DNA of 64,000 nt from NCBI GenBank assembly GCA_042408215.1, contig JAYFMW010000005.1:384001-448000 (forward strand), read 5' to 3'. The DNA is from Microcoleus sp. (GTDB lineage Bacteria; Cyanobacteriota; Cyanobacteriia; Cyanobacteriales; Microcoleaceae). Below the pieces are notes generated by a model that ran no database searches, was not told the DNA's origin, and was given only the letters and a program-made list of their open reading frames with translations. A program made the position numbers and the translations under genes. Of this stretch, positions 29,218 to 59,533 are shown one piece after another; within the stretch, counting starts at the first letter, position 1; every line of letters begins with the position of its first letter.

Positions 29218-29369
29218 TAACTACAGATAACGGGTAGGGACACGGCAATGCCGTGTCCCTACTGTACTTCATAAACCTGGAATACGCTGTAAACTTGTTT
29301 GGCATTCTTCAATTAACCGTACTGGCGATCGCTACGCATCTAATTACTGTTTCAGTAGACAACGGTGGA

Positions 29370-30644
29370 CTAAGCGAAATAACTGTATCCATCGACGCGG
29401 TGGACCCCTCGGCAATATTTAGCTCTAACTGGGCTAACTTTGCCGAGTGGTGTCACCATTTCAAATACCCCCGTAGCCCGAACGGTTAATCGCCCAACAT
29501 GAGTTCCAGCAAATTTACCGACGGGAAGAATAGCACGAACTATATCGCCAGTCTGAAAGCCAAAAAATGCTTTTTGTCTGGTGCGGTGTCGGATGGGAAA
29601 ACCGTGCTTATTGGTAATGCAGAGTTGGTGATTTCCCCATCCCTTCGCTGTCATTAGTAGGGGTTTAGCACACACTATTTTTAACTTTTCTACAATACCA
29701 ACACAAGCGGCATCTAACCAATGTGATTTAGGGATACCCAGTTTGGTGCGATTGAACTTAGTTCTTCCACCAGTCCCCACTTCCACTGACAACCCTGTCG
29801 CCAGAAGCTTTCGATACAATTCCCATCGCGTAGAGTTAACAGCAGCGGCATCTTTCCGCAGTCCCTTGGATTGCGCCAGAATCTTTTTAAGTTTTTCTGG
29901 TTGGTTTTTCAAGAAGTCTTTAATGTCCGCAGCCCCTTTTTTTTGGTTGCAATCACGGCAAGCAATACAAAGGTTTGATATGCGATTAGTGCCTCCTTTT
30001 GATTTAGGGGTAATATGCTCGACCTCAAGCGGCACATCTTTCTTGTTGCAGTAGGCACAAGTTCTTTCCCATTTCTCCAGTAAATACTCTCGCACTTCAT
30101 AACCAAACAACTCGCCTTGCTGATATTCAATGCCGGAGATTTCTGGGCGATCTATTTGCTGTAAATCAAACCGGACTAATTCCTGAGAAATACCTGTGAT
30201 TGGGGCAAATTTTCTGAGCCTATTCACCCAAGTTAATGTAGTTTTCACTCGGTGTTCAAGACTAGGAGCTAACCACCCTTTTTTGCGGGTTCTATTGAGA
30301 AATCGTGGTTGACGATAACGAGTTTTACGGTGCCGCCGATTACGACGAATAGCTCGGCGCGATTCCAGCGAATTTTTGATAGCTTGCCCGCGATGGGTTA
30401 ATTCAGCCCCCCAAATAACTGCCTCATTTGATACCAATGCTAGGCCAGTAGTTTGAGAGCCTGGATCTATTTTTAACTGGAGCGGGTGGGTTGCTTCTAT
30501 TGATGTAGTTTTGAGGATAATCGCAAAAGGAAAACGACGATAGACGGCAGCTTTTCCTTGCGTAAGAAGTAAACGTGCCAAACAAGGATGAATGGGATTA
30601 AGGGGACGTTTGTTGGTATCAATGACAAACACAAAGTTAGACAT
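29370..30644 (-). CDS. iscB: RNA-guided endonuclease IscB (PLMP, RuvC, RRXRR bridge helix, HNH)
   Basis: PLNPIHP, IDPGS, RR-x-RR...RYRQPRF-x-NR, QELVRFD, CAYC...EVEH...CRDCN, HWLDAAC; catalytic residues intact. Confidence 0.95.
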   Translation of the reverse strand: MSNFVFVIDTNKRPLNPIHPCLARLLLTQGKAAVYRRFPFAIILKTTSIEATHPLQLKIDPGSQTTGLALVSNEAVIWGAELTHRGQAIKNSLESRRAIRRNRRHRKTRYRQPRFLNRTRKKGWLAPSLEHRVKTTLTWVNRLRKFAPITGISQELVRFDLQQIDRPEISGIEYQQGELFGYEVREYLLEKWERTCAYCNKKDVPLEVEHITPKSKGGTNRISNLCIACRDCNQKKGAADIKDFLKNQPEKLKKILAQSKGLRKDAAAVNSTRWELYRKLLATGLSVEVGTGGRTKFNRTKLGIPKSHWLDAACVGIVEKLKIVCAKPLLMTAKGWGNHQLCITNKHGFPIRHRTRQKAFFGFQTGDIVRAILPVGKFAGTHVGRLTVRATGVFEMVTPLGKVSPVRAKYCRGVHRVDGYSYFA

Positions 30645-30649
30645 GATTG

Positions 30650-30882
30650 ATTTGAAACTCTGATTTCTCAGGTAATTTTTTCCTCGTCAAGGTTACTCAG
30701 GCTTGTGATGCTCAACTCACTTTCTTAGCTAAATATGAATGTTTAAAGTTGAGCGACAGAGCAAAAAGCTGGAAAGCACTCCTTGGTGTCGTGACCGAAG
30801 TAACGTAGCCATCAAAGGCTGAGACTGGCTATTTCTCCACTGACTGTACTGGTTGTCAGGCTTTGTCAGTGTTTAGTGGATA
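30650..30882 (-). ncRNA. omegaRNA (HEARO-like) of IscB element 1
   Basis: ctacgtt...gtcacgacacc...gtgc-x2-ccagct...ctctgtcg...ttaaaca...acaagcc...aac motifs shared with the other omegaRNAs in the window; lies directly upstream of iscB. Confidence 0.85.
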
Positions 30883-31973
30883 GCGATTCCATGCTGATAA
30901 TAGGCTGCACAAGCACCTTCAGAAGAAACCATTGGTGCTCCGAGTGGCCGTTCGGGTGTACAGGCTTTGCCAAAGCTCGGACATTCATGGGGTTTGCGCG
31001 TTCCTTGCAATATTAAACCGCTAATACAGAGTGGTGATTCGCGCACTTCGCTAGACTGGAAAGCAGCACAATCGAATCTATTTTGAGCATCAAATTTTGC
31101 ATACTTTTCTTTAAGTTTTAGTCCACTCTGAGGAATTTCTTCTAGACCTCGCCATTGCCTAGATGTAGCTTCAAAAACTTCATTAATCATGGCGATCGCC
31201 TGTTGGTTTCCTGCTCTTTTTACAGAACGTGCATATTGATTTTCTACTTCGGCTTTACCTGTTTCTAACTGTTTCACACAGAGATAAATCCCTTGGAGAA
31301 TATCGATCGGCTCAAAACCTGTGACGATGATCGGAACTTGAAATCGATCGGCGATCGCTTCATATTCGGTATATCCCATCACTGTGCAAACATGACCGGC
31401 TGCCAAAAATCCTTGCATGGTGCGATCGGGTGAGCTTAAAATTGCGGTCATGGCTGGTGGTACAAGCACATGAGCGCAGAGAATGGAAAAGTTGTCTAAG
31501 CCTAAATGGGCGGCTTGGGCGATCGCTAAAGCAGTCGTTGGGGCTGTGGTTTCAAAGCCTACGGCAAAAAATACGACTTGCGTCTGGGGATGTTGTCCGG
31601 CCAATTTAACCGCATCGAGAGGAGAATAGACCATGCGTACATCTGCACCAGAAGCCTTGGCGCGCAATAAGTCGGTGGTGCTACCGGGGACGCGCAACAT
31701 ATCGCCAAAAGAGCATAATATTACGTCTGGATGGGCAGCGATCGCGATCGCCCGATCGATTAGTTGAATCGGCGTGACGCAGACTGGACAACCAGGCCCG
31801 TGAATCAGGGTGATCTCTTTAGGAATAAGGCGATCGATGCCGTATTTGACGATCGTGTGAGTTTGTCCGCCGCAAATTTCCATCAATGTCCAAGGGCGGG
31901 TTGTAATTGCGGCGATCGCCTGTGCGTATTCCTGGGCGAGTTTAGCATCGCGGTATTCATCAATATATTTCAT
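30873..31973 (-). CDS. hypD: Hydrogenase maturation protein HypD
   Basis: [36 protein letters not shown]; last codons supplied by the IscB element. Confidence 0.96.
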
Positions 31974-37337: not shown

Positions 37338-38297
37338 TTTTTTGAGTTCTTTAAGTAATGTTTAATGGAGCGGTTTACCAAGAATGCAATGCTCGCAACT
37401 GGGGTGTTTTTTTCGACTGGTGGGCTTCCATCCGAGTCAGGACATCATCCAGAATGGTGATGGCTTCAGCAATAAACGGGCCTTTATTTAACATGACGCA
37501 CTCAGCGCGTTCAGCCATTGCTGCATCCGTCATCTCTCCCCGTGAAGGTGCTCCATTTTTGACCAAGCTTTCTAGCACTTGCGTTGCCCAGATTACAGGA
37601 ACATGAGCTGCTTCGCAAAGCCAGAGAATTTCTTCTTGAATCTCGCTCAATCGTTGGTATCCGATTTCAACGGCTAAGTCACCTCTAGCAATCATCACGC
37701 CAAATGATTGTTTACCCGCCGCATGAATGATTAATTCTGGCAGATTACAAACCGCGATCGAAGTTTCAATCTTTGCCACGATCGCCGGACTGGTTAAACT
37801 TCCTCCTAAACGGCGATTCAACTCTTGTTGAAGTAACTCAATATCGGCCGCTCGCTGCACAAAAGAGTAACCAATAATATCTGCGTGAATGGCGACAAAA
37901 TCCAGGTCACATAAATCTTTCGCAGTCAGGGGACTAAGCGGCAAGATTGTGTTCGGAAAATTTAACCCCTTTTCGGGTCGAAGTTTGACCCCTTTTGGGC
38001 TAGCATGAGTAACTTGCAATAACAGTCCTAGTTGCCCATCTGGTAATGGGAATTGAGTGTCAATCACGCGAGTCCGTATCTTGCCATCATCAATATACAG
38101 GGGTGCGTCAACAACTAATAAATCGAGAATTTCGGGAACCGTACAGCAAAATTGGAAATTGTCTACAGGTGATGGGATTGGCTCACCTGACTCTACTTCA
38201 CTTCCGGGTTCAGGTACGCACCGCGACAGCAAGATCCTGACGGTGTTACGCTTTACAACCCTGAACAAACAGGGCATACGCGATAGCAATACTCTCA

Positions 38298-39455
38298 CTA
38301 TTGATAGAGAGAGCTCTCGTAGCCGTCCCTCAAAGCTCGAATCATAATGTTTCGAGCGCCGCCCCAATCTCGGTCATGTTCGTGACCGCAGTTGGGGCAT
38401 TTAAATGTTTTTGAACCACCAAGCTTTGAATGTTTGTGTCCGCATTTGGTGCAAGTTTTGCTAGTGTAGGATTCGTTAACGTCAATAACAACAACACCCC
38501 GTTTTTTAGCTGATTGCTTGAGGTGGCATTCAAAACGATAATGCCCCCAAGTGAGCATCTGCCTAGCAGTCTTGGTGCGTAACTTGCGCTTTGATTTAAC
38601 AACCATTTGTGATGTTTCAAATGTAGGCAGCAATATGACTTTGTATTGACTTGTCAGGTAATTAACTACCTGCTTGTGGCACTCATCAACTAAGTTGCGA
38701 ATCCTGATTCTCAGCTTGCTTGCCGCTTTTAGCATCCGGCGTTTCTGCTTTCTACTAGCTTTTGACACACGTCCCATTAGTTTGTCAAGGTGAGAACACA
38801 ATCTTTGAATGCGTCCAATGTCTGCCTTACCAAATTCTTGAAATGAGTCACCGTCGTAGCCAGTTAAAAAAGTTCTAACGCCAGGGTCAAGTGCAATTAC
38901 CTTATCCAGTTCCTTCGTCCTCACCTCTTCTGTTACTGGGATACAAGCGAACCATCGCTTTTTGTCTCTAATAAGTTGGGTCGCAAACTCGGTCTTTTGA
39001 ATTGGCTCTGTACTTCTAAAGCTAAGCCCTTTAACTAAGGATGGGAACCAAGTCTCGCCGTTGAAATTAACCTTGTGGAATTTGATTGATTGCGAGGGTT
39101 GACGGCAACTCCTAAAATTTGCCTCTCCTTTTACAAACTTGGCTTGTTTCCAGGCATCCCAAGCGTCAAAAATAGCATTTTCTTTTGGGTGAGACGGTGC
39201 TGACTTAACCCAATCAGGTAAGTCCAGTCCTAACACGTAGTCCCTCAAAGAATAAGCACTGGTTATTTTTTCGCCTGCTTTCAAGGCTGCAATAGCCTTG
39301 TTGTAGCAGTAACGCGATGCTGATAGCCAAGACTTCCATTTTTGGTGCAGTCCCAGCTCAGGATAAACCCGAATCTTAAGTGTTTTGTTGGGCGACTTCT
39401 TCTCCTTCTTGTGCCTTGGATTCGACTTGTAACTCCTGCTTGATTTGGTTTTCAA
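38298..39455 (-). CDS. tnpB: TnpB (IS607-type)
   Basis: LKIRVYP, ALDPGVRTF, LPTFETSQM, ESYTSKTC-x2-CG, C-x2-CG-x3-DRD-x-GGARN; TTG start at 39455 inferred, overlapping the tnpA end. Confidence 0.9.
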   Translation of the reverse strand: MKTKSSRSYKSNPRHKKEKKSPNKTLKIRVYPELGLHQKWKSWLSASRYCYNKAIAALKAGEKITSAYSLRDYVLGLDLPDWVKSAPSHPKENAIFDAWDAWKQAKFVKGEANFRSCRQPSQSIKFHKVNFNGETWFPSLVKGLSFRSTEPIQKTEFATQLIRDKKRWFACIPVTEEVRTKELDKVIALDPGVRTFLTGYDGDSFQEFGKADIGRIQRLCSHLDKLMGRVSKASRKQKRRMLKAASKLRIRIRNLVDECHKQVVNYLTSQYKVILLPTFETSQMVVKSKRKLRTKTARQMLTWGHYRFECHLKQSAKKRGVVVIDVNESYTSKTCTKCGHKHSKLGGSKTFKCPNCGHEHDRDWGGARNIMIRALRDGYESSLYQ

Positions 39456-40003
39456 GTCTTCTAATGGAGTAAAGTCGGCTGGAAAAGCTGTGGAGGATTG
39501 CGACGATATCTTGAACGAGTTCGGCGTGTGGAGAGAGACTGATTTGGTTGAGAACCACGATTTTGCAGTCAAATTGCTCACAGAGCCATTCGATAATGTC
39601 GAATCCGAATCTTGCAAGTCGGTCTTTGTGGGGCAACCACAATAATTGCGATATCACCTCGCAGAACTCGTCCCAAAAGCTTGATGAGTCCTTTCCTCCT
39701 AAAATTGAGTCCTCCTCCCACTTCCTTAACGACTTCAGCGCCTGGGTAGAGCGTTGATAGTCGTTCAACTTGTCGATCGAGGTCTGCCTTTTGTGGTCTG
39801 GTAGAGACGCGAGCATAGACAACAGTGGCGCGTCCAGAGTCTGGCTCTGATTCCTGTTTGATGAACTTTTCGATGTCGTACCGTCTTTGACCTGACGGCG
39901 TTTTGACGGTGGAGATATTGCCGTTTGCTTCCCATCGTCTGAGGGTTCGCAGGCAAACTCCCAGAGTGTTAGCTGCTTCATTGGGTTTCACATATTTAGC
40001 CAT
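39376..40003 (-). pseudogene. tnpA: IS607 transposase TnpA (MerR-type HTH + serine recombinase) with +1 frameshift
   Basis: GVCLRTLRRWE HTH, YARVST catalytic Ser, VVA|HKDRLARFGF joined by removing one base of the G4 run at 39630-39633. Confidence 0.9.
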
Positions 40004-40827
40004 AGGAAAACTTTCGCACCATATGTGCTTGTTGTCCAGCTTTTTCCAATTAATTAATTATTAGAGGCTAACCGATCGCCTCGAAACACCCGTTTTTGAG
40101 CCCGTGGCGCAAGTACCGATCCCGTGCGGATTTTGGGGCCTCCTAAGTCCATCATCACTTTACAACAGGTTCCGAGCTCCTGTTCCGCTTGACGAATACG
40201 ATCGATCATGCGCTCCCATACCTCGGTGGAATCGTGGGCGCAGTTAATTCGCAAGCAGTTAGCACCCCGTCGGACAAGTTCTCGCACAAAAGCATAGTCT
40301 GTGGCAGCTTCGGTAGGTAATGTGACCATAATTCTGACTTGGCGATGAGTCAAGGTTGGCCCGAATAATTCCTCGGTGTGCTGTCGCAGTAAACGATTCC
40401 CCTCAAAAAAGGACTCGATCGCAGGGCGGTGGAGCACCTCGTCAGAGTCTTTGCCGCAAATGACTTGCAATGTGGCAATAACGGCATCGAGATTGGGCAT
40501 TACCCGCGCTTCAATCCGTCCTAAGGATGATAAGCCCCAAGGCATTAGAGCGGCTTGGAGTTCGCGTAGATCGTGCTGTCGTAATGCTAGATACTGAGCT
40601 AAATTCAAAGCACTAGAAAGAAACTCAGTCCGCTGAATGTGCGATCGCCATTGGCTAAAGGTGGCTTGTCCTTCGCTTTCAACAGTCTGTCGCAGTGCTT
40701 GCAGAGTCGATAGCAAGACCTGTGGACTAGATAGATGCAACGGTTTAGCACTAAGTTCTTTCATTTGGGCTAATCATAGATCAAAGACTCCTGAGTAGAT
40801 GCGCGCGACCTTTGAACTCAATTATAT

Positions 40828-42648: not shown

Positions 42649-42739
42649 GTCAGCACCCCGCTCTTTCAGAGACGGGGCCATTACAGCCTCCAACTTTAGA
42701 TAGCTGACCAGCCTAAGTCCCGCCAGGACTAGGTTTAAC
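42649..42739 (+). ncRNA. 5' fragment of an IS200/IS605-type HEARO/omegaRNA, truncated by a nested IS
   Basis: gtcagcaccccgctctttcagagacggggc...ctgaccagcctaagtc...gacta, same layout as the element starting at 55265. Confidence 0.65.
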
Positions 42740-43158
42740 CAATGCGAACGGCAAGTCCCGCACTCTATCCGTTTACAGGATGAGTGACGGGATGAAAGCG
42801 CAGCCCAAAATAAATTGAGCGGTAGAGAATCAAGATCAATTCTATCTGCTATAATAATCTAATCAGCATTCGACAATCTCGATAAATGTATAGAGCCTAC
42901 AAATACAGAATCTCTCCCACAAGTGAGCAATAAACCTTGCTTGCAAAGTCTTTCGGCTGTGCGAGATGGTTCTGGAACTATGCTCTAAACCTATGTCAAG
43001 AAACTTATAAGAATACTGGGAAGGCGTTATCTAGAGGATACATACAAGGCTTGCTTCCTGCGCTCAAAAAAGAATATGAATGGTTAAAAGAACCATATTC
43101 TCAATGTCTGCAAGTCGTAGCTTTGAATCTATCAACTGCCTATAAAAACTTCTTTGAC
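42740..43158 (+). pseudogene. Left end and 5' fragment of a tnpB element (internal stop; truncated by the next IS)
   Basis: MYRAYKYRISPTSEQ*TLLAKSFGCARWFWNYAL...AYKNFFD from ATG 42886; TAA at 42931-42933; inserted after TTAAC. Confidence 0.8.
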
Positions 43159-55264: not shown

Positions 55265-55668
55265 GTCAGGAACCTCAGCCTAAAGGCATGAGGCTTGAAA
55301 GAGAAATCAACCCAAGCCATTCTGACCAGACCACCTAGCAAATAGGTAGCCGTTACTTGAGTCACGACACCCTGTGGATGCGAAGCTAGTCCCCTCCTCT
55401 GTCGCTAGTAGTTAAACAGTCTTAAGGTCACTGAGACAGTGCTGCGAGCAACGACAAGCTCTTGTAACAGGTCGAAGCTAACATTACCCCGCAAGGGAGG
55501 CTACTTAGTAGCAAAACACTATGCGTACAGGGCTGCAAGATTTGAAACGGTAACTGTCCCGTTGAAAGTGCAATACAAAGGTACACCGAACTCTTGCAGT
55601 TCCAAGGCGGTAGTGGCAAGAAATGTAAAGCCGTCCTAAAAGGACGGGGTTTCAAACCCATTTTTCTG
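55265..55668 (+). mobile_element. Protein-less IS200/IS605-type element carrying a complete HEARO/omegaRNA (internally deleted IscB element)
   Basis: Starts gtcaggaacctcagcctaaaggcatgaggcttg...ctgaccag...gtcacgacaccctg...ctctgtcg...ttaaacag...acaagc; ends aaagccgtcctaaaaggacggggtttcaaacccatttttctg, followed by ATGAC. Confidence 0.82.
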
Positions 55669-55872
55669 ATGACAATGACTAATTTTTCCGATCGTATTAG
55701 CATATTCTGGTTATAGACGATCGTTTTTTAGCCTCGTAGCCAAGGAAAGTTGTGAACGGCAAAATATGGCGATCGCCACAGTCGTGGAGTATTCCCGCTT
55801 TCCCTGTCAGTCAGCTATGGAACGCGATCGCACCAAACTAGAATTCATCGTCACCGCAAGGGAGCAGAAGTA

Positions 55873-57865: not shown

Positions 57866-57872
57866 TTATAGC

Positions 57873-58105
57873 TATCCGCGAACCACTGGACAAACCTGGA
57901 CAATCCAGAGAAATCCTTGGTAGAGATAGCCCGGTTAAGTCTAACCACAGACTACGTTAAGAAGGTCACGACACCCTGTGAGTGCTTGCCAGCTCCTTGC
58001 TCTGTCGCTACCAGTTAAACATCTTTATTTCGCTAAGGAAGTGCTGCTAGTCTGACAAGCCCTCTTAACATTACCAAGGCAAAAATCACCCGATTATTCG
58101 GAGGC
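57873..58105 (+). ncRNA. omegaRNA (HEARO-like) of IscB element 2
   Basis: gactacgtt...ggtcacgacaccctg...gtgcttgccagctc...ctctgtcg...agttaaaca...gacaagcc...aacatt motifs directly upstream of iscB. Confidence 0.85.
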
Positions 58106-58110
58106 TCAAT

Positions 58111-59448
58111 ATGAGCAAAATATTCGTTGTAGACACCAACAAAAATCCTCTAAATCCTATCCATCCAGGCCGATCCAGGATGCTGCTTCAAGAGGGCAAA
58201 GCCGCTGTCTGGAAACGTTACCCGTTCACCATCATCCTGAAAGATGTTCTACCAAATCCCCAAATTGCACCCTGGCGATTAAAAATAGATCCTGGTGCTA
58301 AATTGACTGGCTTAGCACTGGTAGATGATGCAACAGGAGAAGTAGTTTGGGCCGCCGAACTAGAACATAGAGGCTTTCAAATTCGCGATGCTTTAACCAA
58401 ACGCCGCCAGTTAAGAAGAGGAAGACGCCATCGAAAAACTCGGTATCGTCAACCACGCTTTGATAACCGGAAACGCCCTACAGGGTGGCTCCCACCCAGT
58501 CTGCAAAGCCGAGTTGAGAATATCGTAACTTGGGTTCGTAGGTTACAAAAGCTAGCGTTGATTTCTGATATTTCTCAGGAATTAGTCAAGTTTGACACTC
58601 AACTCATGGAGAATCCAGACATCAGTGGAGTCGCATACCAACAAGGTGAGTTAGCTGGTTACGAAGTGCGAGAATTTCTGCTTTTCAAATTCAATCATAC
58701 CTGTATGTACTGTGGGGCTAAAGATACTCGTTTGGAGATTGAGCATCTTTTACCGAAGTCTAAAGGTGGTTCAAATAGAATTAGTAATTTAGGCATTGCT
58801 TGTAGGAATTGCAACCAAAAAAAAGGCCGTCAAGCTCTCAGAGAATTTTTAGCCCAAAAACCTGACTTGTTACAGCGCATTCTGAGACAAGTAAAACAAC
58901 AGAAAGCCGACACTGCTGCCGTTAATTCTACCCGTTGGGCATTATTTAATCGACTCAAAGAGACTGGATTATCCGTGGAAGTTGGGACTGGTGGGCGGAC
59001 AAAGTTTAACCGATGTCGTCAAAACCTACCTAAAACTCACTGGCTGGATGCTGCCTGTGTTGGGGCATCTACACCCCTCAAACTAAAAGTTTCAGGGGTA
59101 GTGCCGCTGTCAATAAGGGCTGTTGGTTATGGAAATCGTCAAATGTGTCAAGTTGACAAATTTGGCTTTCCTAAGCGTGGTAAGGAAGGTAAGCTAATCA
59201 AACGTGAGCGACAGAAAAATTACTTTGGTTTTCAAACGGGCGACATGGTTAAAGCTATTGTTCCTACTGGGAAACACGCTGGTACTCACGTTGGTAAAGT
59301 CACCGTCAGAAAATCCGGTGCATTTGATTTGACTGTGGCTCATGTGCGCTTGCAGAGTATTCGTTGGAAGCACTGCCGCGCGGTGAACCGCTTTGATGGT
59401 TACAGTTATGCCTCTTTGTCCACCAATGTCGAGTTTTTAAACGATTAG
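58111..59448 (+). CDS. iscB: RNA-guided endonuclease IscB
   Basis: PLNPIHP, IDPGA, RRQLRRGRR...RYRQPRFDNR, QELVKFD, CMYC...EIEH...CRNCN, HWLDAAC; catalytic residues intact. Confidence 0.95.
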   Translation: MSKIFVVDTNKNPLNPIHPGRSRMLLQEGKAAVWKRYPFTIILKDVLPNPQIAPWRLKIDPGAKLTGLALVDDATGEVVWAAELEHRGFQIRDALTKRRQLRRGRRHRKTRYRQPRFDNRKRPTGWLPPSLQSRVENIVTWVRRLQKLALISDISQELVKFDTQLMENPDISGVAYQQGELAGYEVREFLLFKFNHTCMYCGAKDTRLEIEHLLPKSKGGSNRISNLGIACRNCNQKKGRQALREFLAQKPDLLQRILRQVKQQKADTAAVNSTRWALFNRLKETGLSVEVGTGGRTKFNRCRQNLPKTHWLDAACVGASTPLKLKVSGVVPLSIRAVGYGNRQMCQVDKFGFPKRGKEGKLIKRERQKNYFGFQTGDMVKAIVPTGKHAGTHVGKVTVRKSGAFDLTVAHVRLQSIRWKHCRAVNRFDGYSYASLSTNVEFLND

Positions 59449-59533
59449 AGGCGTACCGATCGCCTTCATGCTGAGGACAAATTAAAACCCAGAAAGCTAG
59501 GGGCAATTTATGAATTTCCTCTAGCTTTCTCTA

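Follow-up and report, generated by a model that had tools for sequence, protein, structure and literature searches.

A 64,000-nucleotide stretch of a Microcoleus sp. genome (contig JAYFMW010000005.1, positions 384,001 to 448,000 of the forward strand; hereafter the window, G000:C5:384001-448000, where G000 is the window's own genome of 7.36 Mb) contains an IS607-family element in a pyruvate-kinase gene (pyk) and two IscB elements, IscB1 in hypD and IscB2 just past hoxH. We show that the three elements share one type of transposon end and that their conserved target is SC|GATCG (S, G or C; the bar marks the insertion point), the core of the cyanobacterial repeat HIP1 (GCGATCGC), where they insert without duplication. 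The most unusual point is that the IscB elements appear, from the alignment of their ends, to carry ends of the IS607 type. The shared ends point to IscB mobilization by an IS607-type serine recombinase, because the ~40-bp distal end and the phased TGGACAA repeats of the proximal end are common to both kinds of element. We consider it probable that the three belong to one transposon family with the ends and the insertion chemistry of IS607, in which TnpA moves the IscB elements too and the nucleases restore the elements.

The initial annotation had placed the same GATCGCC at the corresponding junction of all three elements, and the motif was indeed located there, at 40074-40080 (IS607 end), at 29324-29330 on the reverse strand (IscB1) and at 59458-59464 (IscB2). 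The three uninterrupted sites were found in a close relative, G008, in which the flanks of the insertion sites are 96-99% identical to those of G000. They read ggaatcGCGATCGCC, attataGCGATCGCC and aagatCCGATCGCC, a letter-for-letter match to the empty sites that had been reconstructed from the window. The empty hypD site, at the gene end, reads ...catggaatcGCGATCGCCagtacgg (G008:C401; IscB1 site), the empty site 6 nt past the hoxH stop codon reads ...gctaattaTAGCGATCgccttcatg (G008:C139; IscB2 site), and the empty pyk site, present in both G008 and G005, reads ...gacagcaagatCCGATCGCCtcgaaac (IS607 site). Distant pyk orthologues are likewise uninterrupted, with GCGATCGCC in G071 and G014, ACGATCCCC in G042 and ACGCTCCCC in G041. 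The empty pyk site has a single CC, and the reading frame of pyk needs exactly these two bases. In addition, a contig from the public run X1 links position 57871 to 59457, skipping 1585 bases; the IscB2 site is therefore empty in another sample. The empty sites of all three insertions hold one copy of SC plus GATCG. Because those of G008, G005 and run X1 carry GATCGCC once, the motif is flank, as had been supposed, and nothing was duplicated.

HIP1 is very frequent here (79 copies in the window, with 0.73 expected, and 5123 in G000), and copies at different sites all have GATCG past the end. Both facts would suit an explanation in which GATCG(CC) is the element's own terminal part, or in which the match at three of three sites is a chance event in a HIP1-rich genome. 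However, GATCG(CC) as a part of the element is already refuted by the empty sites of G008, G005 and run X1, which keep one GATCGCC. Moreover, the bases beyond GATCG differ among copies, and the chance per site is 0.3%. We regard this explanation as extremely improbable.

To leave the flank unselected, 61 genomes of the genus were then searched with ATTAGAGGCNTASC, a pattern free of GATCG. A search with the end motif that allowed two mismatches gave 1206 matches, mostly spurious, and exact patterns were used instead. The pattern gave 80 matches across 43 of the 61 genomes, compared to 10 for a reversed control, and these loci, pooled with loci fetched earlier, yielded 68 distinct flanks. GATCG, which occupies 0.3% of oriented positions in G000, is abutted by 49 of the 53 family-like ends. 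The earlier claim that the three-of-three match in the window is not due to chance was thus borne out, as was the assignment of the three elements to one end family in identical register in HIP1-like sites, the same flank being found across the genus. The 15 flanks without family-like upstream sequence comprise 8 that abut GATCG, read as mini-copies or variants, and 7 that do not, taken as host sequence rather than ends; at least 5 of the latter recur with like flanks in at least 2 genomes. Upstream of ten ends, with no guide-proximal end found and no HEARO RNA by Rfam, lie host-sized open frames that were not scanned against Pfam for cargo; these ten are read as solo ends or mini-copies. An exact-pattern search in G000 found the end motif with GATCG at 9 places. 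Three of these are the window copies and two are the further copies of IscB2 (at C21) and of IS607 (at C26); the others are an IscB at C30:110370, protein-less copies at C3:172214-172620 and C30:201531, and a solo end at C19.

Beyond GATCG, the flanks follow the genome. Of 52 ends, 28 have C as the next base, 13 have A, 9 have G and 2 have T, and the background 3' of CGATCG is 53, 22, 16 and 9%, respectively (p = 1.0); GATCGCC follows 13 of 52 ends compared to a background of 17% (p = 0.15). On the other side of the insertion, the dinucleotide is GC in 28/28 IscB-type ends, and the IS607-type ends have CC in 5 and GC in 2. Since the survey loci extend only 1500 bases upstream, rows without the far junction were left out of these dinucleotide counts, and at three loci the Rfam local alignments start inside the RNA, which made the left flanks unreadable. 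This junction never has T or A, although 31% of the CGATCG sites of G000 do. In the IS607 direction the target reads 5'-CGATC-G(G/C)-3'.

Perfect HIP1 octamers occur at 14 of the 30 sites with both flanks known, and 41% is predicted by abundance; all 14 belong to IscB-type elements (24 sites), and the 6 IS607-type sites include no perfect octamer. As had been noted, the window sites in hypD and after hoxH are perfect octamers, while pyk has CCGATCGC. HIP1 accounts for ~40% of the ~25,000 oriented SCGATCG sites in G000. Because position 8 follows the background, the octamer itself is not read, and it is the core motif SCGATCG within HIP1 that makes the repeat a landing pad. The proposal that HIP1 is the target thus stands in part: the elements land in a HIP1-like core and GATCG adjoins 49 of the 53 family-like ends, but the conserved part is SC|GATCG, neither GATCGCC nor the octamer, and both CC after GATCG and the perfect octamer occur at background frequency.

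The guide-distal end aligns over ~40 nt between IS607-type and IscB-type elements, with 26 of 35 ungapped positions identical, by our count, between one copy of each type. It consists of two TGTCCA-like repeats, then ATTAGAGGCnTAsC, then GATCG. The guide-proximal end is also alike in both kinds, with a 14-nt tip and two TGGACAA-like repeats 10 bp apart, the second in a small hairpin; in the IscB-type end, the 14 nt of tip are followed by TGGACAA-N3-TGGACAA. These TGGACAA/TTGTCCA repeats, spaced 10-11 bp at both ends, are candidate TnpA-binding repeats. The two ends differ at their tips, leaving no terminal inverted repeats. For IS607-family ends, Chen et al. described the lack of inverted repeats and of duplication, GG at the termini and in the target, and TnpA-binding direct repeats, short and helically phased, within the ends (PMC6188088), and the end layout found here fits such phased direct repeats.

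The junction dinucleotides follow a regular pattern. At the distal end the dinucleotide is fixed per subfamily (CC in IS607 and IscB2, GC in IscB1), and at the proximal end it follows the target. Read in the IS607 direction, IS607 and IscB2 have a left-end core of GG and IscB1-type elements one of GC, and the right-end core is GG or GC. Zedaveinyte et al. reported that TnpA-Ser acting on altered cores leaves the donor dinucleotide at the left end and the target dinucleotide at the right end (10.1101/2023.11.20.567912), and the junctions of the family match this measured rule. The cut position can slide two bases for IscB1 (GC/GC) and IS607 (CC/CC), but one base only for IscB2, whose junction dinucleotides GC and CC differ. 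GC as IscB2's own first dinucleotide, like GT in the N|ATGA family of HEARO elements described below, was considered and rejected, as the other junction has CC and the empty site GC.

Transposition of IS607 depends on a serine recombinase and passes through a double-stranded circle. In the mechanism we propose, an IS607-type TnpA would bind the TGGACAA motifs and move both the IS607 and the IscB elements, the latter as non-autonomous passengers. Excision would rejoin the site as guide match plus GATCG; a resident nuclease, either TnpB with the 5' target-adjacent motif (TAM) CGATCGS or IscB with the 3' TAM (GC)GATCG, would cut this site, and recombination would then restore the element. HIP1 would act as a dense landing pad.

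Several observations weigh against mobilization by this TnpA. The tnpA gene is frameshifted in both G000 copies of this IS607. Of the 61 genomes searched, only 7 (G006, G056, G031, G001, G009, G011 and G004) yielded an open-frame TnpA of at least 76% identity, compared to 43 with the end motif, so co-occurrence of IscB-type ends with a close TnpA did not hold up. G008 has 98-99% identical IscB copies elsewhere, and its best TnpA match, in a genome 83% complete, is 54%. In G000 the IscB2 pair (99.7%) is more alike than the IS607 pair (98.5%), and IscB2 may for this reason have used another transposase in its last move. Furthermore, the IS607 targets given in the published descriptions are GG, (G)GG or TGGG, none of them CGATC, and 4 of the 53 family-like ends lack an exact GATCG and have GGAAC, GATCC, GAGATCG or AATTG instead. 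Two further points on this side are that G000 has many intact Y1 transposases (20 Y1_Tnp matches, ~13 full length) and that, according to the published survey of ISC transposons, the Y1 class moves every IscB element described so far (PMC4810608).

These last two points also speak for a rival explanation, in which the IscB elements are ordinary ISC transposons, moved single-stranded by a Y1 (IS200/IS605) TnpA, and resemble the IS607 at their ends because end and guide-RNA sequence was exchanged or captured between elements. In the account of Kapitonov, Makarova and Koonin (2016), Y1-moved IscB elements have the same termini and target as IS605 elements that carry only TnpB, with the gene in the opposite orientation, and they insert inside or 5' of short motifs without duplication (PMC4810608); a hairpin does lie ~25-38 nt from the guide-proximal tip of the present elements, and a close TnpA-Ser is missing from most genomes that hold IscB-type ends. 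However, only one autonomous element was found to have ends of this type, and it encodes a serine recombinase; none of the 9 family ends in G000 lies near any of the 20 Y1-transposase matches. Moreover, the ends have phased direct repeats rather than the hairpin pair expected at both ends for Y1, no hairpin being seen in the alignment of the guide-distal ends, and the mismatched junction dinucleotides obey the TnpA-Ser rule (10.1101/2023.11.20.567912). On balance, we think a Y1 transposase unlikely.

The invariant GATCG could also be a survivorship filter, the transposase needing the core dinucleotide only and copies persisting where the flank is a TAM for restoration by IscB or TnpB after frequent excision. 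The motif would then directly reflect the TAM of the nucleases instead of a preference of the transposase. Published IS607 targets hold little beyond GG (PMC6188088); TnpA-Ser is reported to excise at ~5% overnight, with TnpB raising retention (10.1101/2023.11.20.567912); and the other IS607 subfamilies of G000 are not flanked by GATCG. Such a filter should nevertheless let some unfiltered insertions be seen, and the 49 GATCG-abutting ends of 53 include very recent (99.7%) and strain-polymorphic copies; mini-copies without a protein follow the same GATCG rule, and in one tested case the transposase itself was found to have a TAM-like preference, TGGG (10.1101/2023.11.20.567912). We hold a filter to be quite unlikely and retain insertion by an IS607-type TnpA into SC|GATCG as the preferred explanation.

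A related IS607 subfamily is also present in G000 (C5:235830, C20:671705 and C30:563836). Its TnpA is 54-58% identical and its left end contains GGACA repeats; it has a different tip, AACTAAATAA, and no GATCG flank. This subfamily could be an alternative source of transposase.

The family resembles the IS607 family (IS607, IS1535, ISXfa1 and the Clostridium botulinum IStron) in having a serine recombinase with an N-terminal helix-turn-helix (HTH) encoded upstream of tnpB, in inserting without duplication and in lacking terminal inverted repeats. It also has a core dinucleotide at each junction, short direct repeats in phase within the ends, and a predicted guide read outward from the right end, as in that family. 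The differences lie in its target, CGATC plus G(G/C) from the HIP1 core instead of GG, (G)GG or TGGG; in a core that may be GC; in the presence of the same ends on IscB/HEARO elements; and in a TnpB of a Fanzor-like clade whose guide-RNA region has no Rfam match. With the ISC transposons, for which the targets GT|GG, GT|GA, TT|GG and N|ATGA are listed (PMC4810608), it shares non-autonomous IscB plus HEARO units whose gene runs opposite to tnpB when the shared ends are aligned, a target and register common to these units and their TnpB partner, and insertion without duplication. In contrast, the partner here is an IS607 element with a serine recombinase, not a Y1 element, and the target is SC|GATCG; the GATCG family does not show the ISC combination of ends shared with a Y1-mobilized IS605 partner, hairpins at both ends and 4-nt targets. 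A 2026 review likewise places IscB with IS200/IS605. IscB elements moved by an IS607-type serine recombinase, or sharing ends with IS607 in this way, have not been reported before, and a literature search returned no paper linking HIP1 to TnpB or IscB targeting.

G000 itself contains a second kind of IscB element. Rfam gave 70 HEARO matches in this genome, 64 of them above the Rfam threshold, and 69 were examined. The start GC-TAT of the GATCG family was seen in 6 of the 69; the others start with GTCA or otherwise and differ in their far ends, and ~60 of the 69 belong to the N|ATGA family. This family is alike in its RNA family (RF02033) and protein family, and many of its copies are protein-less, but it has GTCA... 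tips, other far ends and no GATCG. In a tree of the IscB proteins, a 99/96 branch splits the four GATCG-type IscBs of G000 from 14 of the 15 others; one GTCA-tipped IscB on a long branch (C6:362004) groups on the GATCG-type side.

The best solved relative of the window TnpB is 9b0l, 'TnpB-like protein L79' of a giant virus (E 3.2e-22), and the value against 8h1j, 'RNA-guided DNA endonuclease TnpB', is 3e-9; the alignment includes a DPG motif. This motif and the L79 relative fit the cyanobacterial IS607 clade that Yoon et al. named pro-Fanzors, described as having DPG in RuvC-I, a relocated RuvC-II glutamate and an IS607 TnpA partner (PMC10711439), and by these likenesses the window TnpB is probably a cyanobacterial pro-Fanzor TnpB. 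Rfam gave no match to the guide-RNA region of this TnpB at any E value up to 1.

A GATCG-type TAM for both IscBs and TnpB, as predicted by the initial annotation, is a sound inference by analogy. Identity of the TAM with the transposase target motif has been shown for IscB and TnpB of IS605 elements and in the tested cases of IS607 TnpB (PMC10055086, 10.1101/2023.11.20.567912), including the TGGG motif that Zedaveinyte et al. found to be both TAM and target (10.1101/2023.11.20.567912). If the TnpB end is like those of ISXfa1 and the C. botulinum element, its core dinucleotide would belong to the RNA scaffold, which agrees with the TnpB guide predicted earlier, atcttgctgtcgcggtg. For the IscBs, the junction GC could be guide, to which the initial annotation assigned it, scaffold or TAM. 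HIP1 is described as containing the sites of two methylases (PMC4390886, PMC13756078), and G000 yields a single Dam-family match plus 11 C5-methylase-family matches, which include fragments of one gene; methylation sensitivity of the nucleases, as suggested earlier, is speculation.

These findings give IS607-type transposition a long, precisely mapped natural target, CGATC plus the core, and provide dozens of independent insertions that obey a donor/target dinucleotide rule previously seen in one laboratory system only. They suggest that a serine recombinase can carry IscB elements along as passengers, a combination reported as not found. For compact IscB and Fanzor-like TnpB nucleases they predict a TAM that is new, palindromic and GC-containing, and they connect the spread of mobile elements with HIP1, a repeat of still debated function. 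A more tentative possibility is that an IscB/omega-RNA lineage left single-strand Y1 transposition for a serine-recombinase (IS607) system and that IscB and the Fanzor-like TnpB, two nucleases unrelated to each other, both evolved TAMs in the palindromic, methylated HIP1 core, with post-replication methylation possibly gating the cutting. If this were true, the most abundant repeat of cyanobacterial genomes would double as a landing pad and a homing signal.

Table 1. Coordinates of the three inserted elements, their parts and a contrasting HEARO element in the window.
Feature	Position	Strand	Details
IS607-family element, 1836 bp	38238..40073	-	tnpA then tnpB; boundaries may shift by the 2-nt core dinucleotide
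tnpA, serine recombinase with N-terminal MerR-type HTH	39379..40003	-	frameshifted near 39632-39645
tnpB, Fanzor-like clade, DPG motif	38298..39380	-	intact frame, start approximate; open frame 38298-39617
IS607 guide-proximal (right) end	38238..38275		14-nt tip, TTTACAA (38252-38258) and TGAACAA (38262-38268) 10 bp apart, the second within a hairpin
IS607 guide-distal (left) end	40032..40073		TTGTCCA (40032-40038), TTTTCCA (40042-40048), tip ATTAGAGGCTAACC (40060-40073)
GATCG flank of IS607, target core and candidate TAM	40074..40078		single copy in uninterrupted pyk of G008 and G005
CC dinucleotide at the other IS607 junction, target-derived core	38236..38237		predicted TnpB guide starts at 38235, read leftwards
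IscB1 element, 1552 bp	29331..30882	-	HEARO 30672-30884, iscB 29370-30644; flanks GC (30883-30884) and GATCG (29326-29330)
IscB2 element, 1585 bp	57873..59457	+	HEARO 57871-58089, iscB 58111-59448; flanks GC (57871-57872) and GATCG (59458-59462)
Protein-less HEARO element of the other (N|ATGA) family, for contrast	55265..55672	+	tip GTCAGG, ATGA at 55669-55672, no GATCG flank

The IS607 insertion splits a pyruvate-kinase paralogue, and the canonical pyk lies elsewhere in G000. Pfam finds the MerR/HTH_17 and Resolvase domains of its tnpA in two overlapping frames, and tblastn divides the gene into residues 1-124 and 120-208, with an intact 208-aa frame in the sister copies of G006, G056, G031 and G001. 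Because of this frameshift, the window's own copy is, as its sequence reads, no longer able to make TnpA. The tnpB gene downstream encodes Cas12f1-like TNB and OrfB_IS605 domains (Pfam). The second copy in G000 (C26:10747-12592) is 98.5% identical with different flanks, and copies 93-98% identical occur in G006, G056, G009, G031 and G001, each with other flanks. Inside the element, a CGATCG at 39773-39778 is preceded by T, not G or C, a non-target context under the SC|GATCG rule.

Rfam detected three HEARO RNAs (the IscB omega-RNA) in the window; two of them lie upstream of the iscB genes of IscB1 and IscB2, whose products have RRXRR and HNH domains (Pfam), and the third (55265-55487) is protein-less. 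IscB2 matches solved IscB structures, and its second copy, 99.7% identical, lies at C21:56360-57954; a copy of IscB1, 98% identical, was found at another site in G008:C169. All three elements are oriented like their host genes (hypD, hoxH and pyk), which suits an IscB guide transcribed from outside the element, as described for IscB (PMC10055086). The IscB1 insertion changes the C-terminus of HypD (window 30873-30890) from ...GIAIASTVN-stop in the empty allele to ...GIAIH-stop; since the first bases of the element preserve the Ala-Ile codons, this hypD probably still works.

Small and altered derivatives of the family were also seen. A 102-nt copy, L056 (G009:C185), and a ~106-nt copy in G000 (C30:201530-201635) retain the tips only, and both abut GATCG, as does a solo distal end at C19:98780-98793 in G000. 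The IscB2-type copy L026 (G005:C615) measures 2459 bases instead of the normal 1585, ~870 bases longer, and the foreign sequence, which begins inside the omega-RNA, looks like a nested insertion.

The protein-less HEARO element at 55265-55672 sits upstream of hoxY and has a 98.8% identical copy at C7:267392-267799. A weak partial HEARO match between pfk and the next gene (42649-42759; 32.6 bits, E 1.5e-4) may represent a copy in decay. The terminal 45-55 bases of the protein-less element (window 55619-55676), a GC-rich hairpin followed by T's, occur solo at ~100 places in G000 with 85-98% identity and may represent a separate small repeat or terminator module.

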